20,000 nt of DNA from an uncultured virus (IMG/VR IMGVR_UViG_3300030109_002585) (taxonomy: Duplodnaviria > Heunggongvirae > Uroviricota > Caudoviricetes). Location: the IMG/VR virus record IMGVR_UViG_3300030109_002585. One strand, 5' to 3'. This document shows, piece after piece, positions 1-18,062 of the stretch. A model generated the notes under the pieces. It saw only the letters and a program-made list of their open reading frames with translations. It was not told where the DNA came from and ran no database searches. Both the position numbers and the translations under genes were made by a program. Position 1 is the stretch's first letter; each line of letters begins with the position of its first letter.

Positions 1-197
1 AACATACCTTCTCCTGTGTCGCATTCCCAGTCTTTACCATTGGAATCTTTAGTAAACTCATGTAGTCCAAATTCTGAACCTGTGGAGTATTCTTCCTGCA
101 ATTTTTCGATTTTATCTAGTAATTCTTGTTCTTGACCTCTAAAAACTGTTTTTACTTCTTTTAAGCCGTTTTTCTCTATTATTATTCCATTAACCAT
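1..197 (-). CDS. Hypothetical protein, runs off the window edge (MVNGIIIEKNGLKEVKTVFRGQEQELLDKIEKLQEEYSTGSEFGLHEF...)
   Basis: Translated by hand and not in the ORF track. ATG at 197, GAGGGA-like RBS upstream, open to position 1, downstream of element E1. Confidence 0.7.
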   Translation of the reverse strand, partial: MVNGIIIEKNGLKEVKTVFRGQEQELLDKIEKLQEEYSTGSEFGLHEFTKDSNGKDWECDTGEGM

Positions 198-236: not shown

Positions 237-291
237 CTAGGGTATGTCAAAGTAGCATACCATATGGTTGCATCTTTGAATGTAACCCTAG
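237..291. promoter_or_regulatory. Repeated element E1 (TAGGGT-CAAAG-ACCATATGGT-CTTTG-ACCCTA)
   Basis: Palindrome 259-268. Left stem GGTATG 241-246/CATACC 256-261 around CAAAG. Right stem GGTTGCAT 266-273/ATGTAACC 280-287 around CTTTG. Confidence 0.75.
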
Positions 292-296
292 TTTTT

Positions 297-312
297 AAAA
301 AAAAGAGAAAAA
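297..312 (-). terminator. T-tract terminator (minus strand)
   Basis: A-rich tract on + strand downstream of gene 373..621. Archaeal terminators are U-rich tracts. Confidence 0.5.
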
Positions 313-372
313 TGCCGGTCTTTCCCGACTGTCACCTCTAGTCTAAGGGGCGAGGTTTACCCCATGTTTGCG

Positions 373-621
373 TCATGATTCAGCAGTGTCCTGTTCTGCT
401 GGGAGTGTTTCGTCTTCATCATCGCAAGCGTCTTTTAATTCTTTCCAATTGATGCAATTAAAATCCATCATGTCAGTATAGAAACCAGTATAGCCAATGT
501 CTTTAATTCCATGTAAAAAGACCGTTTCTATCGTTTCTTCGATATATTCAACATCGCTCACAGTTACGGGGTCAAACCAAAGGCTCACAAGCCAAGTTGC
601 TCTATTTGTCCAGCCATTCAT
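373..621 (-). CDS. Small acidic phage protein (NGWTNxxTWxVxLW...NWxE motif family)
   Basis: 82-aa ORF with GTGA RBS. The N-terminal motif resembles a widespread phage hypothetical family (recalled). Lies between E2 and a T-tract. Confidence 0.8.
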   Translation of the reverse strand: MNGWTNRATWLVSLWFDPVTVSDVEYIEETIETVFLHGIKDIGYTGFYTDMMDFNCINWKELKDACDDEDETLPAEQDTAES

Positions 622-653
622 ATTATCACTTAATAATATTATAAAATTATGAA

Positions 654-721
654 TATATAGGGTACTCCAAAGAGCGTACCATATGGTAGTAGTCTTCTTT
701 GTCTTTTGACTACTACCACAT
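654..721. promoter_or_regulatory. Repeated element E2
   Basis: TATAGGGT then CAAAG 668-672, palindrome 678-687. Left stem GGTAC 661-665/GTACC 676-680. Right stem GGTAGTAGTC 685-694/GACTACTACC 708-717 with CTTTG in the loop. Confidence 0.75.
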
Positions 722-743
722 AAAAAAATAAAAAAAAGAGAAA
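722..743 (-). terminator. T-tract terminator (minus strand)
   Basis: AAAAAAATAAAAAAAAGAGAAA on + strand, similar to the tract at 297-312. Confidence 0.5.
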
Positions 744-1198
744 CGCCGCCTACTCCAACACTCGAATCACCGCTTCATCAGTTTCCCGCCAATTCGCCAT
801 GGCTCCTTGGACTCTGTTTACTTTTTGAAGACTTACAACGCATGTTTCGGCTTTGTCTCTCTATGGTTTATTCCGGCTTACGCCATAGGAATGTAAAAGG
901 TGTTGGACGGGCTATCTTTTGGATTCCCGCATTGTGAGTGGATTATCTTGTACCACTAAGTTTGAAAGTGCGCTATGGCATTTCATATATGAGGTCACAA
1001 ACTACACAATCTATTCATTGACAGTCAATCAATGCCCTTTTGGGGAACATAGGTCAAGAGCCACTATTCTAACTCATTTGAGCATCGAATAATGGTTAAA
1101 CTCGCCACCACAGCGATTAGTGTATGCCTTACTCCCTTCCAAGAGCATTCGGCCACCAACTTATCCCAAGAACCCGCTAAAGTCGCTTGAGACAATAA
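740..1198 (-). ncRNA. Candidate ~460-nt structured non-coding RNA
   Basis: No ORF of 60 aa or more. GC-richer than its flanks, bounded by E3/TATA and a T-tract like the neighbouring genes, with several potential helices. Confidence 0.45.
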
Positions 1199-1210
1199 TA
1201 AGCACATAAT

Positions 1211-1286
1211 ACCCCTATATAGGGTCTTTCAAAGTTAATACCATATGGTTTGGTAGGTCACTTTGATGATGACCGGTACGAACCAT
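1211..1286. promoter_or_regulatory. Repeated element E3
   Basis: CCCTATATAGGGT, CAAAG 1230-1234, palindrome 1240-1249, imperfect right stem 1247-1260/1270-1284 with CTTTG loop. Confidence 0.7.
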
Positions 1287-1340
1287 AAAAAAAAAGAAAA
1301 TAAATGATGCAGGGCCAATGTAAGTCACCCTGCATCATTT
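1287..1340 (-). terminator. 13-bp hairpin plus T-tract, 3' of gene 1360..1635
   Basis: AAATGATGCAGGG 1302-1314 / CCCTGCATCATTT 1328-1340, loop CCAATGTAAGTCA, A-tract 1287-1300. Confidence 0.65.
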
Positions 1341-1359
1341 TTATGCCTAAATCTGAGAA

Positions 1360-1635
1360 TCACTCAGAAACATGAATTGATTCAATAGTCAATCCGTGTT
1401 CTTTGACTTCATCTCTAAGCATGTGTACTGTTGCAACACCATTACCACGGATAGCACCTTTCACAGTGGTCGCCGTTGTGATGTTTTGACAAGCAATCTC
1501 GATTATCTTATCTAACATGCGTTGCTGTGCTTTTTTCAGAGAAGTATATACTCCAATCTGCCTTGTCTGTTCCTTTCCTCTCCTATCAGTAAAGTTTCTG
1601 ATTAGTCTGAAAACTCGGTTATTCTCTATCCTCAC
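1360..1635 (-). CDS. Hypothetical protein (~91 aa)
   Basis: ORF track 1360..1683. Start moved to GTG at 1635, which follows an AGGTGA RBS. The longer start lies inside E4. Confidence 0.75.
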   Translation of the reverse strand: MRIENNRVFRLIRNFTDRRGKEQTRQIGVYTSLKKAQQRMLDKIIEIACQNITTATTVKGAIRGNGVATVHMLRDEVKEHGLTIESIHVSE

Positions 1636-1670
1636 TTTTTCACCTATTAATGTGAATAATACAGTATTAA

Positions 1671-1745
1671 ATAGGGTACTCAAAGTTCATACCATATGGT
1701 TGTAACTTTGTGCATTACGAAGTAACTTGACCCTATATAGGGGTA
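1671..1745. promoter_or_regulatory. Repeated element E4, between divergent genes
   Basis: ATAGGGT 1671-1677, CAAAG 1681-1685, palindrome 1691-1700, CTTTG 1706-1710, then mirrored ACCCTATATAGGGG 1730-1743. Confidence 0.75.
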
Positions 1746-1807
1746 TGTACCCCTAATAATTGCTTCAAAGGGATTGAAGTGGTATTAGGGGTTACTTAAT
1801 ACAGGAG

Positions 1808-2344
1808 ATGAAAAAAATGGACATGGAAAAATGGACTCAACGAAGCACAGATATTAGAGAATGGCTCAAGCACAATGATGCTGGGGCTATGGCTACACTA
1901 ATCGAACAAACCCTAGATGCGGGCGACAATTCTGACAACATGGAAGAATTAGACCGTTTTTGGGAGGCAGTAAGAGCAATATGCAAAACCTTACCAAACA
2001 CACCTATCAAGCAGGGCCGTGGCTCAACACTAGCACCGGCAATTCAGGCGTGTGTGGATGGTGTAGTGAATCGCATACAAACTGCCTTTGCAGTAATTGG
2101 TGACTCTGACCTAATTTTGGAAGTTATGCTTCCACACGGAAAGACAGGCGGCGCATATGCCGATATTGACGCTTTTGCAAACGATATGGCTACAAAAGCA
2201 CAAAGGGTACTAAAGGCGGCATTGAAAGATGGCCGTTGGAATGGTACAATGACTGAAGATGGACTAACCGGACTTACCCCGCCGGTCAAGCAAACTTCAG
2301 ACAATGAAGAAAGTGACGAGGACTCAACGGAGGAATCGCACTGA
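1808..2344 (+). CDS. Hypothetical protein with acidic C-terminal tail (178 aa)
   Basis: ORF with AGGAG directly upstream. It is the only clear + strand gene in the early zone. Confidence 0.85.
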   Translation: MKKMDMEKWTQRSTDIREWLKHNDAGAMATLIEQTLDAGDNSDNMEELDRFWEAVRAICKTLPNTPIKQGRGSTLAPAIQACVDGVVNRIQTAFAVIGDSDLILEVMLPHGKTGGAYADIDAFANDMATKAQRVLKAALKDGRWNGTMTEDGLTGLTPPVKQTSDNEESDEDSTEESH

Positions 2345-2453
2345 TACTCACTTCAATCCCTTTGTAGCCACAATCAAACTCCAACGGCGATTTGCACGGA
2401 TTGAAAAGTCAAGACAGTCGGACCGGCTCACTTGCGTGAAATGCAAATTAGGA

Positions 2454-2516
2454 GCAGGGTGGATTGATGGAAAATACCTAACGGACCCATCAATCCACCT
2501 TGTAGCCACTTTTTTT
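2454..2516 (+). terminator. Hairpin plus T-tract terminator
   Basis: GGTGGATTGATGG 2458-2470 / CCATCAATCCACC 2487-2499, followed by T7 at 2510-2516. Confidence 0.65.
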
Positions 2517-2520
2517 ATGA

Positions 2521-2592
2521 GGTTGTGTTCCCGATGGTGTTTCAAAGTACACACACAACCATATGGTATTGATTGCTTTGTGTCAATACCCC
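2521..2592. promoter_or_regulatory. Repeated element E5, between convergent terminators, no TATA arm
   Basis: Left stem GGTTGTGT 2521-2528/ACACAACC 2553-2560 enclosing CAAAG. Palindrome 2558-2567. Right stem GGTATTGA 2565-2572/TCAATACC 2583-2590 enclosing CTTTG. Confidence 0.7.
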
Positions 2593-2598
2593 GTCAAT

Positions 2599-2644
2599 AA
2601 AAAAAAATAATAGAGAGCCGATGTAAGTCACTCTCTATTATTTT
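2599..2644 (-). terminator. 14-bp hairpin plus T-tract
   Basis: AAAATAATAGAGAG 2604-2617 / CTCTCTATTATTTT 2631-2644, loop CCGATGTAAGTCA. Confidence 0.65.
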
Positions 2645-2801
2645 CTTTATTTTGGACACCCACTATGGCACTTTAGACGACCATGTTTCATCAGTTATCT
2701 TCAATACTATCTTCATGGAGATAACCTGATGAGTATTCGTTTCCCCGTCATTTTTCTGTACCAAACTATTCGGTCAGATTGTGCCACAGTGAGTGTGGAA
2801 T

Positions 2802-2978
2802 CTATTCATCCCATAAAGCGGCCCTGAAATGTTTTTCGCTGAATGTGTGGCTATCTTCCTTTAGCATAACGCACATCTCATCAATTAAGTCTTCATGGCG
2901 GATTAGGCCATCAGACATAGTAACATGATTGATTACTTTCACTAATGCGAGATAATGTCTTTTCTGAAACTTGCTCAT
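2802..2978 (-). CDS. Small phage protein (58 aa, MSKFQKRHYLAL...EDSHTFSEKHFRAA)
   Basis: Start moved to ATG 2978, giving an ATGA overlap with the upstream gene and a GGAGAGG RBS. Pattern resembles a widespread phage family (RKHF/Y...DNxxFxxxxF..A), recalled. Confidence 0.75.
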   Translation of the reverse strand: MSKFQKRHYLALVKVINHVTMSDGLIRHEDLIDEMCVMLKEDSHTFSEKHFRAALWDE

Positions 2979-3451
2979 TCTTCTTCCTCTCCTGATAGGT
3001 CCAAGTCCCGAATACACAATACAGCCGCATGGCGGTATTTATCGAATGCGTCGTCATTATCGAATAGCGTTTCAGCCATTTTATCCAATGAAACTGATAC
3101 TATCGGTTTTATGTCGTCATCCTTAACCTTAATCAAGTGAAGTTGTTTCTGTAACTTCAACAATTTATTGACTCTGCCTCTAATCCATGCACGGTCAATC
3201 ATTTTGTTTCCTGTGATACTAACTTCATCTATTTGGACGATTCCGACATCTTTTCCAAAATCAACATAATCAACGCATGTAATTGTTAATTTGTCAAGGC
3301 TCATAGTCCATTCAATATCAGTGCTTGTATCTCTTTCATTCCACATGCTAACCATTGTGTTAGTATCTGTGAATTGATATACCATTTGTTTCTTGATAGT
3401 GCCGTCATTATACACCGTATCTCCGTAGGTCGTTGTTATATCCATATTCAT
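2975..3451 (-). CDS. Hypothetical protein (158 aa)
   Basis: ORF with AAGGAG RBS, downstream of E6. Confidence 0.8.
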   Translation of the reverse strand: MNMDITTTYGDTVYNDGTIKKQMVYQFTDTNTMVSMWNERDTSTDIEWTMSLDKLTITCVDYVDFGKDVGIVQIDEVSITGNKMIDRAWIRGRVNKLLKLQKQLHLIKVKDDDIKPIVSVSLDKMAETLFDNDDAFDKYRHAAVLCIRDLDLSGEEEE

Positions 3452-3483
3452 TAACTCCTTTGAATAATAGCAATATTACTCTC

Positions 3484-3522
3484 TTTATAGGGTTGCACAA
3501 AGTAGCAACCATATGGTACTAT
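3484..3522. promoter_or_regulatory. Repeated element E6
   Basis: TTTATAGGGT, stem GGTTGC 3491-3496/GCAACC 3505-3510 around CAAAG, palindrome 3508-3517. Right arm TGGTACTAT 3514-3522 complements ATAGTACCA 3686-3694. Confidence 0.75.
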
Positions 3523-3705
3523 TATGAGATATTGTTGTCTATATAGATGGGGTATATGAGCATTGTTTTCTTTTAGAATGAAATGTTTCTATAATAAAAC
3601 ATAACACTTTAATTGAGTTGAAGGGATTATTTAGGTGATTTTCGCTTAAACTAAAACTCACCTATATATTTACAAATTTATCTATATAGTACCACATAGC
3701 ATTAT

Positions 3706-3730
3706 ACAACCATATGGCTTTGTCCAAATT
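3706..3730. repeat. Degenerate element E7 (ACCATATGG-CTTTG)
   Basis: 9/10 match to the palindrome at 3709-3718, followed directly by CTTTG. Confidence 0.45.
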
Positions 3731-3794
3731 TTTAATATTGCTATATCAGTCTTATAATGCCAACATTACATCATTAATTCATTAATATGAGCAT

Positions 3795-4112
3795 TTGAAG
3801 GTTAATTATCTCGCCATTATACCGGCATACTTATACCATAAACAGGACTCGCTTAATACGGGATTGATTGTGACTGATGCGGATGATGTATCTAAACTAT
3901 TAAAAGACATAGTTGATGCTATTACACCAATACTTTCGGATATTAAATCTAATACTAAATCAGCATTGAATATACAAGTAAGTCAGGCAAATAAGGTTAA
4001 ATTAAAAGAAATAGCAAAGAAACTTGAATCATTAAAGAGCAAGATTATACCATTATATCATTTAGATTATAAATCAGGTTCAACTACACAAACTTCATTA
4101 AATATAAAATAA
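3795..4112 (+). CDS. Hypothetical helical protein; start uncertain (GTG 3870 plausible)
   Basis: 105-aa ORF with a TTG start and no clear RBS. Confidence 0.5.
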   Translation: MKVNYLAIIPAYLYHKQDSLNTGLIVTDADDVSKLLKDIVDAITPILSDIKSNTKSALNIQVSQANKVKLKEIAKKLESLKSKIIPLYHLDYKSGSTTQTSLNIK

Positions 4113-4246
4113 CATTAAATCATTAAGATTTTATTCTGGGAATACATAAGTTAATTAAAAAAGGCTGACGCTAGTGCCAAAAAAATTCCGCCACAATTTT
4201 TCAAAAACAAATTCTATTTTAAGCAATTAACAGGAAAAGGGTTATT

Positions 4247-4516
4247 ATGACATGGAAAGATGAGATTAGAAAAGACGATGAAGAAGATAGAAAGTATAAG
4301 ATAATTGCACCTCTATTAGAAAAGTTAGAACAATATATAGAAGATAATAACTTAGACCAAGTATCGTCTATTAAGAAAGCCTTTGACGAGTTAGAATTTG
4401 AATTAATGTCTGATATTGGATATACCGGCAAATATGAAAATGAAGGCGATACTCCTATGGAAGACGCTATGTATCGTGAAAGAGAAGCACAAGGCGATAG
4501 ATATTCAATGATGTGA
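4247..4516 (+). CDS. W-tag small acidic protein (MTWKDEIRK)
   Basis: ORF track. First gene of the + strand operon. Confidence 0.8.
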   Translation: MTWKDEIRKDDEEDRKYKIIAPLLEKLEQYIEDNNLDQVSSIKKAFDELEFELMSDIGYTGKYENEGDTPMEDAMYREREAQGDRYSMM

Positions 4517-4521
4517 TTGAT

Positions 4522-4779
4522 ATGACATGGAAAGATAAAATACAGAAAAAAATGCCTAAAGGAGAATTATTGGGCGGTATGGGTATGAGAATTACTGTTG
4601 ATTCTCTTACCGCAAAAGAACGACTTTACAAAAGAATAAAAAGTGACGAAGCACAAACTTTGGCTGATTTTTTACAAGAGGCTAGAATTACCGCATTAGA
4701 ACTAATGAGTAAAATTAATGATGCAAATAAATATTATGAAGAAAATAAAGATGCGCTTGATAGAAAAAAAGGCGATTGA
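4522..4779 (+). CDS. W-tag small protein (MTWKDKIQK)
   Basis: ORF 4513..4779, start moved to ATG 4522 after GTGA. Confidence 0.8.
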   Translation: MTWKDKIQKKMPKGELLGGMGMRITVDSLTAKERLYKRIKSDEAQTLADFLQEARITALELMSKINDANKYYEENKDALDRKKGD

Positions 4780-4780
4780 T

Positions 4781-4948
4781 ATGACACGCTGTAATTACTT
4801 AGAAGACTGGTTCGATAATGAATCTGCTAAATTGGACAAAGTTGAAAATGACTATGGTAAGTGTTTAGTTACAGGTCAAAAGAAAAAGGCTACTACTTTA
4901 ACTAAGGCTCAAGCATGGGCTAAAGTGTTTAGGAGGAATAAAGAATGA
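4781..4948 (+). CDS. Small hypothetical protein (55 aa, MTRCNYLEDWFD...)
   Basis: ORF 4718..4948, start moved to ATG 4781 just after the upstream stop. ATGA overlap with the next gene. Confidence 0.7.
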   Translation: MTRCNYLEDWFDNESAKLDKVENDYGKCLVTGQKKKATTLTKAQAWAKVFRRNKE

Positions 4949-5226
4949 GTTGGGAAGATATAGTGAAAGTATCAATTACAGAGGGTCTATTCAATCAGAC
5001 AAAAGAAAAGATGAAAGACATAAAAGCAAAGTTAAGTAGTTTAGAGAAGAATAGTTATACGAAAACATCTTTAGAAAATATAGTTGATATTTATGAACAA
5101 GCAAAGAAGGCTCATAGGGAAAATAATAAAAAACTACTTGGATTTCATCTTAGAACAATGACAATAATAGGAAAAGAAATATCAGACTACTTTGATGCAC
5201 AGGATATAGGAGTTGTCAAGGAATGA
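4945..5226 (+). CDS. W-tag small protein (MSWEDIVK)
   Basis: ORF with AGGAGG RBS and ATGA overlaps. Confidence 0.85.
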   Translation: MSWEDIVKVSITEGLFNQTKEKMKDIKAKLSSLEKNSYTKTSLENIVDIYEQAKKAHRENNKKLLGFHLRTMTIIGKEISDYFDAQDIGVVKE

Positions 5227-5936
5227 ATTGGAAAAATATACTAAAGAGAGAGAAACCACCCCTTGTCCCTGATGAAGCGAGGTTTAATATTCCTACTGGA
5301 AATTTAAATAATCCTCCTGAAAGCAGGTATTTTGAAAATGCACAGGTGCATTGGATGGAATCTGTTAAATTTGTAGGAGAAGAGTTAGAAAAGCGATATA
5401 TACCTACTAAACAACACTTAGAAGCCATAAAAAAACCTTATAGGATAAAGTATAACGAAAGATTGCGTAGTAGCCAACCTGAAAATTTGTTTGACTTCCA
5501 TGCGACACTTTCAGATGAACAAGTGGAAAGCAGAAGGAAAGCGGCAACTGCGGCTTATAGAGTGGCCGAAGAAGCAATCAGAAAGGTTATTGACCCTTAC
5601 ATGGAGTTTTTGGGAAGTTGGGATAAAAAGAAAAACTTACAAGAAGCGAATAAAGAATGGGAATATCTAACCCATAGAGTTATGCTCACTGTTCACACCG
5701 CATTAAACAATTTATTCCCAACAGTGGAAGACGCATACAGGTCTAGAAAGTTAAATGGTTTCTTGCATTGGAAAGGTGAATACTATCAGAATCTAATGAA
5801 TAAGAAACTACCTGATACTATGGAACAAATTAAACCAGCGAAGAAACAACCATCGAAGAAAGAGCCTCCAAAGAAAAGAGACTATATGGCTGAAAGAAAG
5901 GAAAGAATAGAGCGTCTTAGGAGGGATAGGAAATGA
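5223..5936 (+). CDS. W-tag protein (MNWKNILK), 237 aa
   Basis: ORF with ATGA overlaps at both ends. Confidence 0.85.
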   Translation: MNWKNILKREKPPLVPDEARFNIPTGNLNNPPESRYFENAQVHWMESVKFVGEELEKRYIPTKQHLEAIKKPYRIKYNERLRSSQPENLFDFHATLSDEQVESRRKAATAAYRVAEEAIRKVIDPYMEFLGSWDKKKNLQEANKEWEYLTHRVMLTVHTALNNLFPTVEDAYRSRKLNGFLHWKGEYYQNLMNKKLPDTMEQIKPAKKQPSKKEPPKKRDYMAERKERIERLRRDRK

Positions 5937-6316
5937 GTTGGGAAGATATAATGAAAAAGAATCCTATGCGCTCAAGGTCGAATGCTGAAAAGAAAAAGAG
6001 GCGGGAAAACAAAAAGACTCTTGAAAGATTAAAAGGGGATTTAAGTTTTGATAAGGAATTGCTTCAGCAGTTGATAAGAAGAAGAGATGAACCTAATCGC
6101 AGAAAATCACAATATGGTGTAAAGTCAACTCATCGGTATTTAGATTCTGACGGAAGAGAGAAAGAGAGGTCTAAAACAGAAGCAGAAATGAAGAAAGAAA
6201 GGGCTGATAATATAAAAGAATACCAAGCCTTTTTAGATAAAATGAATAGTAAAATTAGACCTCTTGAAAAAGAGATTAAAGAAACCGAATCCCAAATCAA
6301 AGAATTAGAGGGATAG
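5933..6316 (+). CDS. W-tag charged coiled-coil protein (MSWEDIMKK)
   Basis: ORF, K/R/E-rich and helical-looking. Confidence 0.85.
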   Translation: MSWEDIMKKNPMRSRSNAEKKKRRENKKTLERLKGDLSFDKELLQQLIRRRDEPNRRKSQYGVKSTHRYLDSDGREKERSKTEAEMKKERADNIKEYQAFLDKMNSKIRPLEKEIKETESQIKELEG

Positions 6317-6319
6317 GAT

Positions 6320-6616
6320 ATGAGTTGGAAGGATTCACTAAAGAAGTATCGAACCAATGTAAGTGGTTCCGGTGCGGTCCCTTTACAAGATGTTCAGAAA
6401 GACCATAAAGAATTAAGTCTGAAACTTAGAGGAATTATGGGTGCAGTTGGTAGTCTTAGAAATAATATGCCACGAAGCGTTAGTAAAGTAATGGCTAAGT
6501 TAGATGAAATCAAAGAAGAAATATATAAAACAGAACAATTACTTGATTCTATGACTGAAGAATATGACAGTATAGATAGAGATAATTGGGACAAGACAAT
6601 GGAGGATTTACAATGA
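6320..6616 (+). CDS. W-tag coiled-coil protein (MSWKDSLKK)
   Basis: ORF track, operon spacing. Confidence 0.85.
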   Translation: MSWKDSLKKYRTNVSGSGAVPLQDVQKDHKELSLKLRGIMGAVGSLRNNMPRSVSKVMAKLDEIKEEIYKTEQLLDSMTEEYDSIDRDNWDKTMEDLQ

Positions 6617-6984
6617 ATTGGTTTGATGTAATCAAGATGTTAACTCCTAGAGAGTTTCTAGAAAAATTAAACTTGGATGGTGACATCAAAGGCACTACCG
6701 GTAAGAAAGGCACTAACATGTCGCTTCAGCACGATGCTGGTTTTGTTAAAGTCAATCAATCTAAAACAGGACCATACATAGTAAATGTTGATGGTGAGAG
6801 ATTTACTGATTATAGTTTAAGTAAGTTATTAACAGAAGTAATGGGCGCAGTTAAAAAGTCCCAAACTTCTTATACAGATGTCTTGCTAAGAAGAGCAGGG
6901 CAAGTCAATTCTGACACGGCCGGAATCATTAATGTGAGATATTCACCAAAAAAGGAGGATGAAGAATATGGCGAAGAGGACTAA
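6613..6984 (+). CDS. W-tag protein (MNWFDVIK)
   Basis: ORF 6586..6984, start moved to ATG 6613 (GGAGG RBS, ATGA overlap). Confidence 0.85.
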   Translation: MNWFDVIKMLTPREFLEKLNLDGDIKGTTGKKGTNMSLQHDAGFVKVNQSKTGPYIVNVDGERFTDYSLSKLLTEVMGAVKKSQTSYTDVLLRRAGQVNSDTAGIINVRYSPKKEDEEYGEED

Positions 6985-8065
6985 GAAAGCAACAACCACT
7001 GATGGTTTTGGTAATCAAGTACAATCAGAAACTTTGACCTTCAAACAAATGTACGATGATTGGGAGACAGATTGTAGGAAGTATTCTAGTGCAGACATAC
7101 AATCAGAAGGAAAAAAGGGGAAGACAACCCCGCCCAATTTATTAGAGCAAGTTAAGGAACATGTGACTCTAGCATACAGGCGACCTAATTCAAAGAATAA
7201 AGGAGGAACGGGCGCACATGTTGTTATTGATAAGATTCTAGAGTCATTAAAATCAGAGAAATTATTCCTTGCTAAAGAAGAGAAAGAACTCAAAAAATTC
7301 CAAAAAGAATTAAGAAAACTAAACAAGAAGGGTAGTAGTTTAAACCCTAGTAATATTGTTTTCAATAGGCCAGAAGACTACGATGTAGTGGATGGAAAGG
7401 TAGTTAATGAAAGTAAAGTACAGATTCCTATTTACGGGCATTATGTCGATAAATACTTTGTTGACAAATATCCAGAAAAGAAATATACTGTGAAAGAATC
7501 ATGGAGTGACACTTCAAAAAATGTTTCAAATCCTCCGCTTAAACAAGCATTATTTGGAAAGGGTGATTTAATAACAGTGGGTTTAGCCGATGTAGTGGAC
7601 AAGGCTATTGAAGAATTAGATAATAAAAAAATAAATCTCTATACTATTGGAATTAAAAGAGCATCAGCACTTGCAAGAATACCTTCTGTTCAATCTTGGG
7701 TTAGAAGAAATATAGTCAAGAAGAAATTCTATCCTGAAAATAGTGGTAAGATTAATCTAACAGAAATAGGTAATGCTTTGTTAATAGAAGAGTTTACAAT
7801 TAGAAATGAAATAGAACAGAAGATGTTGACTATTGCCGCCACTAATAAGAATATAGAATTTGCGCAAGAGATTGAAGCATTTAAGGTAGGTCAAATATCT
7901 AATGGAGTTATGGCTACTTTAATTAGAGAAGTAATTTCAAGAGGAAAGACAGAAAACATTAAGGTCAAAAATGGATATTATTTACAGTTAAGAGGATTGT
8001 CCGACCCTCCTTCTGAAACATGGAAAGAAATCAAAAAGAGTTGGATGCAACATTTATGGGCGTGA
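6968..8065 (+). CDS. Basic hypothetical protein (~365 aa) with a C-terminal W-motif (KKSWMQHL)
   Basis: ORF 6959..8065. AGGAGG spacing favours ATG 6968. Confidence 0.85.
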   Translation: MAKRTKKATTTDGFGNQVQSETLTFKQMYDDWETDCRKYSSADIQSEGKKGKTTPPNLLEQVKEHVTLAYRRPNSKNKGGTGAHVVIDKILESLKSEKLFLAKEEKELKKFQKELRKLNKKGSSLNPSNIVFNRPEDYDVVDGKVVNESKVQIPIYGHYVDKYFVDKYPEKKYTVKESWSDTSKNVSNPPLKQALFGKGDLITVGLADVVDKAIEELDNKKINLYTIGIKRASALARIPSVQSWVRRNIVKKKFYPENSGKINLTEIGNALLIEEFTIRNEIEQKMLTIAATNKNIEFAQEIEAFKVGQISNGVMATLIREVISRGKTENIKVKNGYYLQLRGLSDPPSETWKEIKKSWMQHLWA

Positions 8066-8069
8066 TTAA

Positions 8070-8330
8070 ATGGATTGGGTCGAAATCATGAAACGCAGTA
8101 ATTCTGATGAAATTGACAACATATTAGATTCTTACAGTCAATTGCAATCTATTCTGAAAGAAGTCTTTGCTGATATGATACCGCTTTCTGCTCTTTTAGA
8201 ATATGGAGATTACAGAGAAGCAAACGATACATGGAAAGAAATGCGTGGTAACATAATGGATTTAGAAGGAACGATGAATAGTATAAAAGATGTTAATGCG
8301 TTTATTACTAAATTGTTAGGTGATGCTTAA
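8070..8330 (+). CDS. W-tag small protein (MDWVEIMK)
   Basis: ORF track, GTGA RBS. Confidence 0.8.
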   Translation: MDWVEIMKRSNSDEIDNILDSYSQLQSILKEVFADMIPLSALLEYGDYREANDTWKEMRGNIMDLEGTMNSIKDVNAFITKLLGDA

Positions 8331-8986
8331 TGATAACTCGTAAAAGATGCGCTGTTTGTCAACATGAAGATAGAGAAGAATTAGAGGCCGCTTTAGAAGG
8401 CGCATTCATTTCCTGTGATGATTTAGATAATAGAGAAGGTTGGAGAAGCGGTACTTCCGCACAACATCTTAGAAATCATATGGGAGAATATACTAACAGT
8501 AGTAATCCTAAATGTAAATTGTGTGTTGACCCAATGAGGAAGCATTACGAAGAAGCACTTTCAAATGGTGACATATCAAGTGATGGTGTTTCACAGGCTC
8601 TCGGTATCACGAAAGAGCAAGTCCAAAGACACATGAAGCACCACTTAGCACCGTTGGTTCAGCAATCTGCCGCCAGCATTATAGCGAAAAAGGAAGTAAA
8701 TGAAATCGAATTACTAAGTGCTAACATACAAAGGTTAGATGATAAGTTAGATGAGTTATTCAGGAATACAGAATTAGAACCTAGAGAGATAGACAGCCTA
8801 ACTAAACTTGCTAAAGAAGTTAGAGAGAGTCTAAAGTATCTTATGGAGTTTAAGGGAAAACTTATTCACAAGCGACAAGATACAATTATTGTCGCACAAA
8901 TGCAGGTTGTTCAAGAAGTCCTTGCACAAAACAATCCTGAGATTTGGCTTGATATTAAGAAAAGAATGCAGGAGAAATTACAATGA
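8330..8986 (+). CDS. Tandem CxxC...HxxxH zinc/HTH protein with C-terminal coiled coil; candidate terminase small subunit
   Basis: CAVC...HLRNH and CKLC...HMKHH, with HTH-like VSQALGITKEQVQRH, followed by a helical region. Upstream of TerL in the same operon. The CDS is clear; the TerS function is inferred. Confidence 0.6.
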   Translation: MITRKRCAVCQHEDREELEAALEGAFISCDDLDNREGWRSGTSAQHLRNHMGEYTNSSNPKCKLCVDPMRKHYEEALSNGDISSDGVSQALGITKEQVQRHMKHHLAPLVQQSAASIIAKKEVNEIELLSANIQRLDDKLDELFRNTELEPREIDSLTKLAKEVRESLKYLMEFKGKLIHKRQDTIIVAQMQVVQEVLAQNNPEIWLDIKKRMQEKLQ

Positions 8987-9177
8987 ATTGGGAAGATACA
9001 ATAAAAAAATTAGATTATCCTGATAAACTAAAAGAATTAGATAAGGATATTCAAATGTATATTAGAATAATAAACTCTTACAAAAAACAGATAGAAGAAG
9101 CATTAGATAAAGATGAACTTGATAAAATATTAAAATCATTAATTGGTATGCTAAAGAGACAGGAGGAATCACAATGA
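8983..9177 (+). CDS. W-tag small protein (MNWEDTIKK)
   Basis: ORF with ATGA overlaps. Confidence 0.8.
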   Translation: MNWEDTIKKLDYPDKLKELDKDIQMYIRIINSYKKQIEEALDKDELDKILKSLIGMLKRQEESQ

Positions 9178-9641
9178 GTTGGAAAGATGTATTAAAATAT
9201 TTACCGAGTGGCAAACACCATGCCTATTTACCGCATGATGTATCAAATTCTTATGATGAAATATATGCTTATTTTGAAGACCCATTATTGAGTCATAGCA
9301 GGGATTGGGAAGATGCTTTGAATGAACTTTCTTTTAGTCAGCAAAAGTTAGCGAGTGATGTTAGAAGGGCTTTCCGAGATACTATTGTTCACAGTCTAAA
9401 ATACAAAGACGAATATGCTAGTAGGAAATATGATGCGAATAAAATTAAACAAGACTTAGATGAAATAAAAGAGTTAAAGACTAAAGTTGATGAATTAGGT
9501 TGGGGCGATAAGAGTATTAATTTTAATTTTCATTTTAATGTTCTCAAAGAGTTTTTGTTAGAAAAGTTACCTACTATCATGCAAAGAGATAAACAACCCG
9601 ACCCTACTCATTCGGAATTTAGAAGGCTTAAAAAGATTTAA
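9174..9641 (+). CDS. W-tag protein (MSWKDVLK)
   Basis: ORF with AGGAGG RBS. Confidence 0.85.
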   Translation: MSWKDVLKYLPSGKHHAYLPHDVSNSYDEIYAYFEDPLLSHSRDWEDALNELSFSQQKLASDVRRAFRDTIVHSLKYKDEYASRKYDANKIKQDLDEIKELKTKVDELGWGDKSINFNFHFNVLKEFLLEKLPTIMQRDKQPDPTHSEFRRLKKI

Positions 9642-9658
9642 CACAGGAGGCAACAAGT

Positions 9659-11680
9659 ATGAAGTGGCCTAGTGATTATCTTGGATTATTTATTATTCTA
9701 TCTGATGATAAAAGCACTAAGCAAATGCTTAGAATCAAAAGAGATGAAGATGCAAGAACTAGCACCGAAAGAAAATTTGTTGAAACTTTTGTAAGAGAAA
9801 TGAGTCCATATGTAGGAGAAACTGATTTTGATACAGATGCTTTTGATATAGATGACTACTTAGAAGAAAAGAATATTCTTGATAATCTTTTTACTATAAG
9901 AAATGCTAACACTACTGTTGCTCAAAGCGATGTAATTAACACAATAGAAGATAATATAGTAAAATTAGTTCAAAATATTGAAAATAGGTTAGGAAGAAGT
10001 AAATTCGATAAGGTAGTATCACAGACAAGAGAGGGAAAAGAAGAAATAAAGCCTCTTCTTATTGATATTCAAACTCAATTAGGGAAGTCAACAAAGGACC
10101 AAAGAGAAAAATTCCGAAATAGGTTTCTAAAAGGTAAAAAATCCTTAGATTTAATCAAATTGGCTGAAGAAAATCAAGATAGGATTACAGTAAGTAACTT
10201 TTCTAACCCAGAAAAAGTAAATATTAACAAATCTTTGCTTAAAATTACCATTAAAGGTAGTGCTTTAGAGAATAATGAAGCCACAGACTTAAAAAACGCC
10301 GCTAAAAATAAAAACTTTGTTGTAAATATGTCAGGAAAAGAATTAATTTTGAAAAAAATATTTAATTTTGCAGAAATTAACAATAAAATGAAGATTAAAA
10401 ACATTATGAACGAAATCTCTCCATTAATATTAGAAAAAGATAAACAATTAGAAGGAAAAGCGATAACTGTTGTAGTTGACCACTCACATTTAAGAAATTT
10501 TCTAATTGAAGAAGATAAAACTCTGAGAGATTTTGATTCAAGCGCACAAATTGAAGTTAAAACTGAATTTGACTTAGTAGCGGAAGAAGATATTAACGAA
10601 GCAAGAATAAAAGACTACTTTGCACTCCTATTACTCTCGGAAAACCCAATAGTTACGGGATATTTGACTGATTTTAAGATTAATGATAAAGAAATCTATA
10701 ATGTTATTTTAAACGGACCCAAAAACAAGAAAACATACAAGTCTTCTTTATATTTAACTAAGGTTCTAACTAATCCTAGCACTCAAAACATATTTGAGGA
10801 TGCTATGAAAAATATAGTTAAAGAAGAGGTTCTCCCTGAAAAAATGTATAGAGAATATATGAGACAACAGGGTAATTGGAAAGTAAATTACAAGGGTAAA
10901 AGAACACCTGATAGAACACCTAACACAGAGGCAGGTAAACAATACCTACAAAATTATGATGACTTAACTGCTAAAGGTACATTAACTATTCCTTTAATGA
11001 GATTCTTAAAAGAAGAGAGAAGAGTCAATTTTCCAGAAGGCTCATATGAAATATTAAATCCTGAAGCCGTTACTTCTGCCCAAATAGTAATACTTACTAA
11101 GAGAAATAAAAGAGTGGATGCTCTGCTAGAAAAACCAAGAACACAAAAACTATACAAAAGATGGCTAAAAGATAATAATATTGCAGACAGCAGAGAAGCC
11201 AAAAAGGGGCGTTTTGCTCCTTCGGTCCCGAAGGTTGAAGGTCTAAATCTAGAAAATGAAAGTAAGTTTGTGCAGACAGTATTCTCTATTATGGATGGAG
11301 GACTACAATCTTTCTTAGGTTCTAGAACAGAATTACCGAAACTTTTTGGAGCAATTAATATCAGAAATTCTCTGAAAGTTTACTACCATACCATTAATGA
11401 TATGACTAATGTTGATGTCAAATCAGCAGTAGTGAAGGTCGATAAATTATCAAAAGATTCAAAAGCAAAAAAGCAATCGCTTCTATCAGCAGTGAAAGAC
11501 CTTAGTGACAAATTCAACGAAGGGCTGATTCAATTTAAGCAATCATTTACTGAAGAACTAAAGAAAAGACTGAAAGATATAGAAGAAAATCCCAATAATT
11601 ATCTAACACTATACAAAGAAAATAGGTTCAAAAAACAATTAATTCTATTCAATTTATTCGATAAGAGGGATGATTCATGA
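9659..11680 (+). CDS. Large hypothetical protein (673 aa)
   Basis: Long ORF with AGGAGG RBS. No catalytic motif recognised. Confidence 0.9.
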   Translation: MKWPSDYLGLFIILSDDKSTKQMLRIKRDEDARTSTERKFVETFVREMSPYVGETDFDTDAFDIDDYLEEKNILDNLFTIRNANTTVAQSDVINTIEDNIVKLVQNIENRLGRSKFDKVVSQTREGKEEIKPLLIDIQTQLGKSTKDQREKFRNRFLKGKKSLDLIKLAEENQDRITVSNFSNPEKVNINKSLLKITIKGSALENNEATDLKNAAKNKNFVVNMSGKELILKKIFNFAEINNKMKIKNIMNEISPLILEKDKQLEGKAITVVVDHSHLRNFLIEEDKTLRDFDSSAQIEVKTEFDLVAEEDINEARIKDYFALLLLSENPIVTGYLTDFKINDKEIYNVILNGPKNKKTYKSSLYLTKVLTNPSTQNIFEDAMKNIVKEEVLPEKMYREYMRQQGNWKVNYKGKRTPDRTPNTEAGKQYLQNYDDLTAKGTLTIPLMRFLKEERRVNFPEGSYEILNPEAVTSAQIVILTKRNKRVDALLEKPRTQKLYKRWLKDNNIADSREAKKGRFAPSVPKVEGLNLENESKFVQTVFSIMDGGLQSFLGSRTELPKLFGAINIRNSLKVYYHTINDMTNVDVKSAVVKVDKLSKDSKAKKQSLLSAVKDLSDKFNEGLIQFKQSFTEELKKRLKDIEENPNNYLTLYKENRFKKQLILFNLFDKRDDS

Positions 11681-14753: not shown

Positions 14754-14754
14754 T

Positions 14755-16185: not shown

Positions 16186-16195
16186 GGTGATTATT

Positions 16196-17554
16196 ATGGT
16201 AAATCCTACTACTGAAGAATTGGAAGAAGCCGAAGAAATCATGGGTAATATAGTTCAAATATCACAGGAAGAGGATGCAGAAACGAATAAGTTAGAAGAG
16301 TTAGGTATTAAGTTAAAGGGAATAAATGACTATGTTATGTCTGATTATGAAGCAATAACTAACTTATCCAAGAATCTAAACATTAATGCGAGTGATGCTA
16401 GAAAGCAATTAAATACATTCCCTTCAGAATATATTGTTGATGGTCAGAATATTCCAGACTTAGTGAGAAAGATGCGTAAAGCAAGAAGAAAACTAAAAGG
16501 CGATTCTAGAATGAGAATGGCTAAAACTATTGATACAGTTATTGAGGGATATGCAGACCATATAAACAAATGTATTGATTCTATTTATTGGATAACTCCT
16601 TACAAAATTCCACTACTTAAAATGAGATTTAATGAGAAAGATTTATCCAAATTAAATAAGATAACTGATGTTAAAAAGAGAAGAGATGTAGTTGATTCTC
16701 TTTGTAAGTTATGGGAAATTGATTTAAAAAAGACAGGAATGGTATATGGCACTGATTATGCTAAATTGGAAAAAGAATCTAGAATAGCAAAGAAAGAGTT
16801 TAGAAAAGAATTGAAAGATATTTCTGACCAATCATTAATTAAATCAAAGAAAGAAAAGTCATTAGACTTCATTTTAAAGGCAATATGCGAAAATCCCGGA
16901 ATTGGAATAGGAAAGATTCATGACTTAATGCCAAGTAATTTACATAAAGCAAATTCAACTAATACTATTTCTAAAATGGTTAAAAAACTAGAAGTAAGTA
17001 ATATAAATGGTTCTTATTATAAAATGCCTAATGAATTAAAAAAGAATGTTTGGGCTTATACTGCGGCATTTATTGATTCAGACGGCTATATTACTATGGA
17101 TAGAAACCATAACCCAAGAGTGGGATTGGTAGCAACAGGAGAAAGAGGGAAGGCATTCATGAATGAAATGCACAAATCTATTGGTTTCGGTAAGTTACAT
17201 CTAGACCAAAAATCCCCTCAAGATACACGGCCTGTTAATCGTCTAAACTTTTATTCACAAGCAGATGTAGTCAATCTATTGACTAAGTGCTTACCGCATT
17301 TCAGACTAAAGAAGGGTAATGCTGAATTATTATTAGAATTAATTCGTATGAAAAAGTCGTACAAGAAGGCTGATTGGTATAAGGGTCGTTGTGAAGAAAT
17401 ATTCAAGTTAATGAAGTGGGAGAATCACAAAGACCATGTAGGTTTTGATTTCCATAAAGAAGGAATATATTTAGATGATATTACTAAATTACAGGGTAAC
17501 TGTAAGATGTCTGTTATGGATGAGTTAGAAGGTATTGGAGGTATGATAGTATGA
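16196..17554 (+). CDS. Helical N-terminus + winged-HTH-like domain + single LAGLIDADG domain protein
   Basis: YTAAFIDSDGYI motif near 17057-17092 with downstream LLTKCLPHFRLKK. HTH-like ILKAICENPGIGIGKIHD...TISKMVKKL. AGGTGA RBS favours ATG 16196. Confidence 0.8.
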   Translation: MVNPTTEELEEAEEIMGNIVQISQEEDAETNKLEELGIKLKGINDYVMSDYEAITNLSKNLNINASDARKQLNTFPSEYIVDGQNIPDLVRKMRKARRKLKGDSRMRMAKTIDTVIEGYADHINKCIDSIYWITPYKIPLLKMRFNEKDLSKLNKITDVKKRRDVVDSLCKLWEIDLKKTGMVYGTDYAKLEKESRIAKKEFRKELKDISDQSLIKSKKEKSLDFILKAICENPGIGIGKIHDLMPSNLHKANSTNTISKMVKKLEVSNINGSYYKMPNELKKNVWAYTAAFIDSDGYITMDRNHNPRVGLVATGERGKAFMNEMHKSIGFGKLHLDQKSPQDTRPVNRLNFYSQADVVNLLTKCLPHFRLKKGNAELLLELIRMKKSYKKADWYKGRCEEIFKLMKWENHKDHVGFDFHKEGIYLDDITKLQGNCKMSVMDELEGIGGMIV

Positions 17555-17802
17555 GTTGGGAAGATATTATTCACAAGAAAGGAAAAGCCCGAAGAAAGGC
17601 CGGTTCTAAAAAAGCAAAGAAGAAGAAGAAGAAGTATAAAGCACCGAAGGGAGTTTATACTAAACCTAAATTAAGAGAAAGTATTCACGCCACTTTACTT
17701 GCTGAAAATACTCATGGAACCGCCGCCGATGAGTGGTCGGGGCGCAAATCTCAAGAATTGAATAGAAGATATAGAAAGAGAGGTGGGGGCTTTGTCAATT
17801 AA
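17551..17802 (+). CDS. W-tag highly basic protein (YTKPKLR...WSGRKSQ...YRKRGGGF; DUF5872-like N-half)
   Basis: ORF with GGAGGTATGA RBS. Family name recalled and unverified. Confidence 0.75.
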   Translation: MSWEDIIHKKGKARRKAGSKKAKKKKKKYKAPKGVYTKPKLRESIHATLLAENTHGTAADEWSGRKSQELNRRYRKRGGGFVN

Positions 17803-18058: not shown

Positions 18059-18062
18059 TATT

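Follow-up and report, generated by a model that had tools for sequence, protein, structure and literature searches.

What is the ten-nucleotide palindrome ACCATATGGT, which recurs between the small genes of this uncultured virus, and why is it bordered by hairpins? We propose that its copies join self-contained cassettes of accessory genes, which form an array in the genome of a magrovirus-like tailed virus. Taken together with its break-and-rejoin and folding steps, this account has in our view about an even chance of being right.

Copies of the palindrome and their distribution

A string search of the window, that is, of the whole 20,000-nt stretch of DNA analysed, placed exact copies of ACCATATGGT at 259, 678, 1240, 1691, 2558 and 3508, and a 9/10 copy, ACCATATGGC, at 3709, in agreement with the initial annotation. 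There are 10 matches with at most one mismatch against 0.52 expected, and none of 200 shuffles of the window reached 10. The remaining three 9/10 matches (6109, 15930 and 16037) lie within long ORFs. The sequence common to all joints comprises only about 10-12 bp, which is short for ordinary homologous recombination.

The same arrangement was seen in other viruses. All copies (5-9 per record) are confined to one 2-5 kb stretch in each of 5 related records, and 3-9 copies are present in 19 of 23 further TerL relatives, including 11 of the 12 that are at least 90% complete. Seven arrays (39 kb) hold 46 exact centres, 43 of them with the arm motif described below, and 8 one-mismatch variants, of which 6 are the anchor. 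The anchor, represented in the window by E7 (Table 1), marks the border of the array with the conserved backbone; it is kept in 8 of the 9 arrays looked at, and the window copy scores 94% to that of relative L162 and 89% to that of L159. E6 is the last full cassette joint of the window.

Table 1. Joints, transcription signals and genes of the window discussed in the text
Feature	Position	Strand	Description
E1	241..287	none	Left arm 241-261, centre 259-268, right arm 266-287; left arm on promoter side of gene 3-197(-), right arm on terminator side of 373-621(-)
E2	661..717	none	Left arm 661-680, centre 678-687, right arm 685-717; left arm on promoter side of 373-621(-), right arm on terminator side of ORF-less cassette
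E3	1223..1284	none	Left arm 1223-1242, centre 1240-1249, right arm 1247-1284; left arm on promoter side of ORF-less cassette, right arm on terminator side of 1360-1638(-)
E4	1675..1732	none	Left arm 1675-1693, centre 1691-1700, right arm 1698-1732; between diverging genes, left arm heading 1360-1638(-), right arm heading 1808-2344(+)
E5	2521..2590	none	Arms 2521-2560 and 2565-2590, stems 8 bp each, centre at 2558; between converging units, both arms abutting terminator runs, no outgoing gene
E6	3491..3517	none	Left arm 3491-3510 heading 2975-3451(-), centre 3508-3517, no right arm
E7, array anchor	3704..3725	none	ACAACCATATGGCTTTGT; core CCATATGG with CTTTG directly abutting, no stems
TATA box	1733..1740	+	CTATATAG, flush with right arm of E4
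TATA boxes, same layout	233-240, 653-660, 1215-1222, 1667-1674, 3483-3490	-	
Oligo-T terminator run	2599..2607	-	Incoming minus-strand unit, flush with right arm of E5
Equivalent oligo-T runs	297-304, 722-737, 1287-1295		
T-run	2510-2516	+	Ahead of left arm of E5
ORF-less cassette	718..1222	-	RNA contigs over 814-1184
Cassette gene, 178 aa	1808..2344	+	In every array looked at, often twice; inverted in two relatives
Core gene adjoining large terminase	16187..17554	+	MarR-like winged helix and one I-CreI-like LAGLIDADG domain

Folding and covariation of the hairpin arms

The arms share the anatomy GGT-stem-RCTTTG tip-stem-ACC and are capable of forming hairpins, apart from the missing right arm at 3508 and the missing stems at 3709. 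The stems listed in the initial annotation are present, including the weak left arm of E3 and the imperfect right arms of E3 and E4. Watson-Crick pairs in the left arms number 6 (241-261), 6 (661-680), 5 (1223-1242, weak), 4 (1675-1693), 8 (2521-2560) and 6 (3491-3510). The right arms have 7 and one G.T (266-287), 10 (685-717) and 8 (2565-2590) pairs, and the imperfect ones 5 (1247-1284, nested) and 3 (1698-1732).

Selection for this pairing, beyond the closing GGT/ACC, was assessed with about 130 arms from related viral contigs, using partner-swapped 3' halves as the control. The contiguous Watson-Crick stem measured 4.59, against 3.32 +/- 0.10 when 3' halves were swapped between contigs (120 arms); with one mismatch allowed it measured 5.81 against 4.18 +/- 0.13, the best of 100 swaps being 4.56 (123 arms). 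In 75 of 130 arms the motif by itself fixes the end; here Watson-Crick pairs at stem positions 4-8 amount to 77, 60, 68, 45 and 43%, against 42, 26, 35, 29 and 26% in shuffles. At each of these positions the share is higher than in any of 500 shuffles, and every position from 4 to 11 shows all four pair types. Promoter-side arms (stem 5.62, swap control 4.20 +/- 0.21) and terminator-side arms (5.78, control 4.07 +/- 0.39) behave alike. Sequence comparison thus supports selection of the arms for base pairing, beyond their linear motifs, and bears out the claim of the initial annotation that pairing is kept while stems change. The two arms within one element are no more alike (similarity 0.321) than arms of different elements (0.353 +/- 0.024), so that the element consists of two separate hairpins rather than one long palindrome.

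Folded as single-stranded DNA, E1 (z -3.2), E2 (z -5.1) and E5 (z -2.0) have the two-hairpin form as their minimum-energy structure, E3 and E4 prefer pairing of CAAAG with CTTTG, and E7 gives no fold (z +0.76). Stems are 4-10 bp and loops 5-13 nt long, and whole single-stranded elements reach only -6 to -12 kcal/mol. Extrusion of a cruciform from duplex DNA is, in our judgement, unlikely with stems so short. Arm folding needs a single-stranded state.

Stems of this length would be ample for RNA. The two hairpins, with CAAAG and CUUUG loops and an AUAU linker, could be part of read-through or dedicated transcripts, where they might mark a site of processing, halt read-through or act as a kissing-loop switch. 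By construction the two loops can pair with each other, and G.T outnumbers A.C within stems by 26:8. However, swapped controls reproduce this excess (2.5:1), the joint lies outside the predicted transcripts, after the upstream oligo-T run and before the next TATA box, and Rfam searches gave no match at joints. The two-fold symmetry, the same on both strands, is moreover a DNA-level property. Judged by its layout, the element favours DNA over RNA folding, and we consider a function in RNA improbable.

In one complete relative, G022, the six joints are asymmetric and have no hairpins (..TATATA..AAATTGCCAAAGCATATGGTAAG..). They keep CATATGG, CTTTG and ACC-TATA at fixed spacing and look like a plain promoter repeat. 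Since these joints suffice in G022, a linear protein site made of the three motifs bears at least part of the function, and the fold, while selected, is dispensable. The initial contention that the element is not just a linear operator is therefore right as far as the arms are selected for pairing, but a linear site does part of the work.

Promoters, terminators and cassette layout

At the 5' end of a gene the ACC of the arm is fused to the TATA box (ACC/CTATAWA, the slash marking the junction), and the start codon follows after 27-29 nt (leaderless) or after 39-45 nt (with GGTGA or AAGGAG). No -35/-10 pair was found at consistent spacing; the conserved box, 27-45 nt ahead of the start codon, is ACC/CTATAWA. 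At the 3' end an oligo-T terminator run comes first and then the arm. Because arms follow an oligo-T run and precede the next TATA box, the joint lies in the spacer between transcription units. Every cassette comes with a TATA box and a terminator of its own, and both strands carry cassettes; a convergent joint was clearly seen just once. The element is a joint between autonomous promoter-gene-terminator cassettes, not a promoter as such. RNA contigs from two runs of one study start at 1762, about 27 nt past the TATA box, a weak hint of a transcription start. The ORF-less cassette, which has no Rfam match, is 89% conserved in L163 and 68% in L327, where it is inverted.

A rival interpretation would make the sites a plain regulatory repeat, the operator or upstream activating site through which a dimeric transcription factor, viral or of the host, controls all cassette promoters jointly. 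CTTTG and ACC would be further promoter-proximal contacts, and shuffling a by-product of repeated DNA, as in halovirus HF2, whose intergenic repeats carry promoters (PMC8707807). The promoter-side arms are flush with the TATA box, and in five of the six in the window CTTTG keeps a constant distance of 6-7 nt from the box; both points are in keeping with this, as is the fixed spacing in G022. It leaves unexplained the stem covariation in both classes of arm, the variable distance from centre to TATA box (17-45 nt), the terminator-side arms, and E5, which has a promoter on neither side. We regard it as possible but rather unlikely.

Cassette shuffling between relatives

Alignments between related contigs showed that cassettes have been moved and flipped at the joints, with whole units deleted, moved or inverted, and that homology often stops at the palindrome. 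In L163, a single palindrome connects the left flank of E3 (window 885-1249) with the right flank of E5 (2555-3451), and the cassette at 1756-2381 is inverted and moved. In L327, this cassette and the ORF-less one are both inverted and the orientation of the backbone is kept. We counted 53 free ends in 33 alignments between contigs, each 100 nt or longer. In fourteen cases the end is no more than 25 nt from a centre in each of the two sequences (chance share 9.1%); the other 39 ends are away from the centre, twelve of them 26-85 nt off, at the outer edge of the arm/promoter. Arms stay with their own cassette across genomes, as alignments pass the near arm and reach the centre. Shared regulatory repeats would draw crossovers anyway, so the breakpoints are no proof of a dedicated recombination function. 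The initial annotation had missed this context, in which the sites are joints of promoter-gene-terminator cassettes, and shuffling points, in a probable archaeal virus.

The arms are rich in hairpins, recur in many copies and differ in length, and 'empty' pairs of centres 19-40 nt apart occur in L045 and L062, and also in L162 (1744 and 1773). Such features might be expected of small mobile hairpin DNAs, miniature inverted-repeat or IS200/IS605-like parasites inserting at promoters, which would not be cassette parts. Against this, the arms travel with their own cassette across genomes, copies are confined to one array, and no transposase turned up, the search for a Y1 transposase (PF01797) giving just one 15-bit sub-threshold match, in 1 of 5 related records. 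We hold this origin to be very improbable.

On the cassette-joint account, each joint consists of the nearly invariant ACCATATGGT between two independent arms, and each arm is part of the cassette next to it. A dimeric, two-fold symmetric protein would read the palindrome, and DNA would be broken and rejoined, or the template switched, at its centre; as the core ATAT is symmetric, a cassette could re-enter in either orientation. The arms would fold while the DNA is single-stranded, for example in replication or recombination intermediates. The palindrome probably also acts as an upstream control site that the cassette promoters have in common.

Virus identity and host

The window is that of an uncultured, magrovirus-like tailed virus of the ocean, which makes a Marine Group II archaeon the probable host. 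Relatives of 84-97 kb are called complete, and magroviruses are defined as head-tail viruses of about 65-100 kb with a replication set of archaeal type. The closest solved relatives of the family-B DNA polymerase are Thermococcales PolB, and its best viral matches include Halorubrum viruses. The polymerase is split over two ORFs in 4 of 5 relatives, as described in magrovirus group B1 (PMC5434244). The MCM profile gave below-threshold scores only and Rad51 was not found by our search; in magroviruses both are detectable only by profile-profile methods (PMC5434244). Besides these MCM and Rad51 results, two observations cast doubt on the host: the nearest cultured TerL matches are Bacteroides phages (27%), and one array-bearing contig was binned to an Altibacter MAG.

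Candidate enzymes

Tyrosine recombinases (PF00589) were found in none of the 5 related records, three of them complete, and in 14 of 14 control genomes. Serine recombinases (PF00239) and Hjc were each absent from the same 5 records. The core gene next to the large terminase (Table 1) encodes a product that is only a candidate as partner of the palindrome. Among the structure matches listed for it, the best are I-CvuI, I-CreI, I-MsoI and engineered forms, with 35 at E <= 0.001, a top E of 1.6e-4 and TM to target of 0.53-0.68 (single-domain chains). The motif FIDSDGYIT is invariant. The gene adjoins TerL in 80 of 80 loci and is also present in a genome without ACCATATGGT.

Homodimeric LAGLIDADG endonucleases of the I-CreI type cut a palindromic site to 4-nt 3' overhangs. 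Conceivably, the virus encodes a system that cuts and rejoins DNA at the joints, using a homodimer of this winged-helix protein and a viral ligase, a proposal that we rate as a long shot. The I-CreI-like homodimer would cut the palindrome across its central ATAT. The 4-nt overhangs left behind would be self-complementary and would allow religation of any pair of cut joints in either orientation. The viral ATP-dependent ligase, which magroviruses reportedly possess, would rejoin them; after resection, the arms would serve to cap the ends or to align them. If true, an archaeal virus would be shuffling its gene cassettes by a natural form of 'restriction-ligation'.

Comparison with known systems

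No published description of the element was found in the searchable literature, as the initial annotation had supposed. The closest known system is the PeSL (promoter-early stem-loop) cassettes, regulatory cassettes in hyperplastic regions of T4-type phages (Arbiol et al. 2010, PMC2839356). Both have one plastic region of small non-essential genes, each with a promoter and a stop signal, and in both the repeated intergenic modules are where relatives shuffled genes. That part of the proposed analogy stands; the sigma-70 promoter and terminator stem-loop of PeSL do not carry over. PeSL recombine via longer shared sequence, and the core here is a 10-bp palindrome. The promoters here are of TATA-box type, with no sigma-70-like early promoter in the modules, the hairpins are not terminators, because the oligo-T run precedes the arm, and cassettes are also flipped. 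Mini-circles excised between neighbouring modules are a further trait of PeSL; the RNA contigs placed on the window show no joints.

Intergenic repeats of class I (58 bp) and class II (29 bp) occur in halovirus HF2 (Russ et al. 2021, PMC8707807). They belong to an archaeal tailed virus, have TATA-type promoters and keep their positions among relatives, and the hairpin-less joints of G022 resemble them most. The layout of the present joints is compatible with a promoter-bearing repeat of this type. The HF2 repeats are, however, linear motifs: the main text of that paper does not contain the terms palindrom, hairpin or stem-loop, and two-fold symmetry and cassette flipping are not described in its available text.

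Integron attC and attI sites likewise belong to cassette arrays; their ends are conserved, while the middle varies in sequence and length but keeps its structure, and a distinct stem-less site stands at the array border (attI; here ACAACCATATGGCTTTGT). Unlike in integrons, an IntI-type tyrosine recombinase was not found here (PF00589, 0/5 records), and integron cassettes are promoter-less and served by one common promoter, whereas these have their own promoters and terminators. Integrons also use one folded strand, in contrast to two hairpins around a symmetric core, and the present cassettes lie in both orientations.

The hairpin promoters of coliphage N4 are read by the virion RNA polymerase. 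They share with our element a short, small-loop DNA hairpin adjoining the transcription start. In contrast to N4, the hairpins here also stand at terminator sides and at the promoter-less joint E5, which has no outgoing gene, and the hairpin is separated from the gene by a TATA box.

The arms of the AAV inverted terminal repeat have AAA/TTT triloops. That repeat takes a T-shaped fold with two small arms, and CTTTG at one tip is the RBE' contacted by Rep (PMC5511163). It is terminal, not internal, and depends on GAGC repeats, a nicking site and a Rep of the HUH type. None of these turned up here, the nuclease search having covered PF01797. The likeness is one of shape only, namely two short hairpin arms side by side with CTTTG exposed at a tip, here accompanied by CAAAG in the mirrored arm.

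Palindromic joints and their hairpin arms

The 10-letter palindrome ACCATATGGT is present without mismatch at the six joints (E1 to E6) named in the initial annotation, with ACCATATGGC in the seventh copy (E7; see table), and all exact copies lie between ORFs, as had been claimed. With up to one mismatch, the window holds 10 matches against 0.52 expected, a number reached by none of 200 shuffles. The hairpin-capable flanks (arms) described on either side of the centres are likewise present, and all arms follow, from the centre outward, the order GGT, stem, (R)CTTTG, stem, ACC. A purine stands directly 5' of CTTTG in 119 of 130 arms, and a TTT triloop can be closed by the C and G of CTTTG itself, often in register. 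In single-stranded DNA folding, E1 (z -3.2), E2 (z -5.1) and E5 (z -2.0) reach minimum energy in the two-hairpin form; for E3 and E4, pairing of CAAAG with CTTTG is favored over two hairpins, and the 3709 copy gave no fold.

Coordinates of joints and associated features (window positions unless a related locus is named)
Feature	Position	Left arm	Right arm	Remarks
Joint E1	259	241-261	266-287	
Joint E2	678	661-680	685-717	
Joint E3	1240	1223-1242	1247-1284	
Joint E4	1691	1675-1693	1698-1732	
Joint E5	2558	2521-2560	2565-2590	
Joint E6	3508	3491-3510		
Array-end anchor (E7)	3704-3725			copy at 3709; stem-less, ACAACCATATGGCTTTGT; kept in 8 of 9 arrays examined
Oligo-T runs	297-304, 722-737, 1287-1295, 2599-2607			
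Oligo-T run, plus strand	2510-2516			
GC-rich terminator hairpins	1305-1335, 2608-2638			
Leader of 178-aa gene	1761-1800			in related locus L158, about 1930-1965 and 4990-5025
455-aa protein gene	16187-17554			beside large terminase; MarR-like winged helix and one I-CreI-like LAGLIDADG domain
Starts of ORFs with common N-terminus	4247, 4513, 4945, 5223, 5933, 6320, 6586, 8070, 8983, 9174, 17551, 18482, 18873, 19154			6586 is internal

Base pairing of the stems across related viruses

The pattern CAAAG-N3-12-ACCATATGGT was found in at least 157 IMG/VR stretches, many of which cluster on 60-97 kb contigs; in five of five such clustered records, all 5-9 copies are confined to one stretch of 2-5 kb. 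Among 23 further records (terminase similarity 80-95%), 19 carry 3-9 copies, as do 11 of the 12 that are at least 90% complete. Stem sequences had been said to change while pairing is kept, and this holds across the relatives: when 3' arm halves are exchanged between contigs, a control that preserves GGT, ACC and CTTTG and has relatedness among copies outside its model, the contiguous stem falls from 4.59 to 3.32 +/- 0.10 (120 arms) or, with one mismatch allowed, from 5.81 to 4.18 +/- 0.13 (123 arms). For the 75 of 130 arms whose end the motif ACC[CT][TCA]A alone sufficed to define, Watson-Crick pairs occur at stem positions 4-8 in 77, 60, 68, 45 and 43% of arms versus 42, 26, 35, 29 and 26% after partner shuffling, each observed value being higher than in any of 500 shuffles, and each of the four pair types is represented. 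Promoter-side and terminator-side arms each exceed their own swap control, in classes that for other genomes come from noisy automatic labels leaving many arms unlabelled. As a strand test, the ratio of G.T to A.C inside stems is 26:8; swapped controls show an excess too (1532:615), so the ratio does not discriminate. The two arms of one element are no more alike (0.321) than arms of different elements (0.353 +/- 0.024), so the element consists of two hairpins rather than one long palindrome. The paired stems seem to sit in an untranscribed DNA spacer, where selected base pairing is rare. Given their shortness, we judge cruciform extrusion from duplex DNA unlikely; folding of the arms probably needs single-stranded DNA.

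A plain operator, in which the palindrome joint would be a linear regulatory site, must be weighed against this pairing. The complete relative G022 is without ACCATATGGT and carries six near-identical, asymmetric, hairpin-less joints (L313 4684-8968) of the form ..TATATA..AAATTGCCAAAGCATATGGTAAG.., with AAATTGCCAAAGCATATGGTAAG adjoining the TATA box. It keeps the usual anchor, all its cassettes (self-contained promoter-gene-terminator units between joints) share one orientation, and elsewhere in IMG/VR, exact copies of its joint form occur at most once per contig. These joints imply that part of the function resides in the linear motifs CATATGG, CTTTG and ACC-TATA, as an operator would have it. 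Set beside stems whose pairing exceeds that of motif-preserving controls, an operator alone appears rather unlikely to us.

Promoter and terminator layout

On the side from which a gene departs, CTATAWA follows immediately after the arm's ACC, and the start codon lies either 27-29 nt after this box without a Shine-Dalgarno sequence or 39-45 nt after it with GGTGA or AAGGAG before the codon. Archaeal TATA boxes that drive leaderless or short-leader mRNAs have this spacing. Metatranscriptome contigs from two runs of one study start at 1762, about 27 nt past the box at 1733-1740, which gives only a weak hint. Where a gene arrives at a joint, its oligo-T run precedes the arm. Promoter-side arms in the window measure 19-21 nt in five of six cases (35 nt for E4R, the right arm of E4), and terminator-side arms are longer, at 22-40 nt with stems of up to 10 bp. 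E4 is flanked by diverging genes, and E5 by two converging terminators with no departing gene; together with the placement of TATA boxes and oligo-T runs, this argues that the joint in itself is no promoter and lies, by layout, outside the transcription units. No assembled contig from four marine metatranscriptome runs covers or bridges a centre, which is uninformative as to the absence of RNA there.

Two other promoter readings were rejected. By eye, the left arm of E1 offers a sigma-70-like TTGACA-18-TATAAT and the other arms have no -10 box at the right spacing; a Bacteroidetes -7 box (TAnnTTTG), also judged by eye, fits only 2 of 11 window arms. Two GC-rich terminator hairpins that stand before oligo-T runs have a near-identical 13-nt loop (CCRATGTAAGTCA) on different stems.

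Cassette shuffling and a candidate enzyme

In L163, the closest relative, one palindrome joins the left flank of E3 (885-1249, 89%) to the right flank of E5 (2555-3451, 87%); the cassette 1756-2381 is found in another place and in inverted orientation, and the backbone (3498-4274) is unchanged in orientation. In the related locus L327, both this cassette and the ORF-less cassette (718-1222, minus strand) are inverted relative to the backbone. Across all loci of the family, inter-contig alignments of at least 100 nt number 33 and together give 53 free ends, of which 14 fall no more than 25 nt from a centre in each partner (chance share of positions, 9.1%) and 12 more fall 26-85 nt from a centre, at the outer edge of the arm or promoter. 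Alignments ending at a centre include the near arm, indicating that an arm travels with its cassette. Some centres occur in pairs 19-40 nt apart that enclose a short AT-rich hairpin and no gene (L162 1744 and 1773, L045, L062/L104); these could be empty joints after cassette loss.

The sequence common to all joints amounts to only about 10-12 bp. A break-and-rejoin event or a template switch at the symmetric centre would allow either cassette orientation and would fit both the short common sequence and the symmetric core. Five records yielded no tyrosine or serine recombinase, Hjc or convincing Y1 transposase: the recombinase and nuclease families PF00589, PF00239, PF01870 and PF08423 were absent, and PF01797 and PF00493 gave only scores below cut-off. 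The only conserved DNA enzyme recognised is the 455-aa LAGLIDADG protein, in which the motif FIDSDGYIT is invariant. Its model (pLDDT only 62) has 35 Foldseek matches at E <= 0.001 (top E 1.6e-4), the best shown being homodimeric I-CvuI, I-CreI and I-MsoI and engineered forms. The gene is present in 80 of 80 related terminase loci and is thus a core gene; its constant place beside TerL (the large terminase) argues that it is domesticated rather than a roving homing-endonuclease gene. Since those loci include the genome without ACCATATGGT, co-occurrence of gene and array is uninformative. Nothing ties the protein to the palindrome, and we therefore consider it unlikely that this is where it acts.

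Virus identity and host

Neither a near-identical phage record nor a close cultured relative was found. Relatives with 78-84% identical terminase have a family-B DNA polymerase split into two ORFs, a feature described by Philosof et al. (PMC5434244) for magrovirus group B1. Among solved structures the polymerase is best matched by Thermococcales PolB, and its best viral matches include Halorubrum tailed viruses. We infer that the host is a Marine Group II archaeon. Against an archaeal host, however, the nearest cultured terminases are those of Bacteroides phages (27%), and MCM and RadA did not exceed threshold. In cellular genomes the full pattern was found at 59 loci on 58 contigs, none from Poseidoniales, so that no direct host link emerges. 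One locus each was found on 57 of these contigs, from assorted bacteria and archaea, approximately the number estimated by chance. The remaining 14.7-kb contig, NZ_NZTP01000027.1 (L209, L210), from an Altibacter (Flavobacteriaceae) MAG bin, contains five joints, and its cassettes have homologues in G005. Mis-binning of a viral fragment is the most likely explanation; the contig is the only link to a cellular bin found, and it counts against an archaeal host.

Relation to known systems

The initial annotation knew of no description of this architecture, and a wider literature search likewise found nothing relevant. Among the matches listed for the 10-mer, no title or opening of an abstract concerned a DNA element of a phage or archaeal virus; the main texts of three magrovirus papers mention no palindrome, promoter, hairpin, TATA or intergenic element, and the searchable literature yielded nothing on magrovirus gene regulation. 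Of known systems, the PeSL cassettes of T4-type phages come closest; PMC2839356 describes for them a sigma-70 promoter and a stem-loop serving as terminator, both absent here. Intergenic repeats of HF2 also bear promoters but are linear. Integrons differ in having an integrase and promoter-less cassettes, neither of which was found here, and the AAV terminal repeat has only its shape and a CTTTG hairpin tip in common.

The element supplies a readable promoter and terminator grammar for magroviruses, composed of a TATA box, leaderless or Shine-Dalgarno-led starts and oligo-T stops. It also makes visible a mechanism of accessory-gene turnover, in which accessory genes, likely for host takeover, and at least one abundant, probable non-coding RNA are gained, lost and flipped as whole units at joints. 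Should a dedicated enzyme act there, the cassette system would be of a new kind and possibly usable as a site-specific tool.

Contents of the cassettes and the rightward operon

Metatranscriptome contigs from two studies cover 814-1184 of the ORF-less cassette, which is conserved at 89% in L163 and 68% in L327. An Rfam search of the whole window gave one sub-threshold, unrelated match and none for this cassette, and a tRNA scan of the window found none. Folded as RNA, the cassette shows no signal from energy alone (z -0.83), and the matches of a 20-mer from it were the known relative and one contig otherwise sharing nothing. The probable content of the cassette is a non-coding RNA gene equipped with a TATA box and an oligo-T stop.

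The 178-aa protein encoded in every array was tried as a binding partner; it belongs to no Pfam or PHROG family, and its all-helical model (pLDDT 77) matched no PDB fold at E <= 0.001. Its gene is preceded by a long leader in which a hairpin (GCTTC..GGGATTGAAG) is conserved, followed by AAGGAG/ACAGGAG and the start codon; neighbouring genes are leaderless.

At least 14 ORFs of the rightward operon (4247-19633, plus strand) share an N-terminus of approximately M-(S/N/T)-W-(E/K)-D-(I/V)-(L/I)-K-K. No family was found for this peptide, which could be a targeting or packaging tag.
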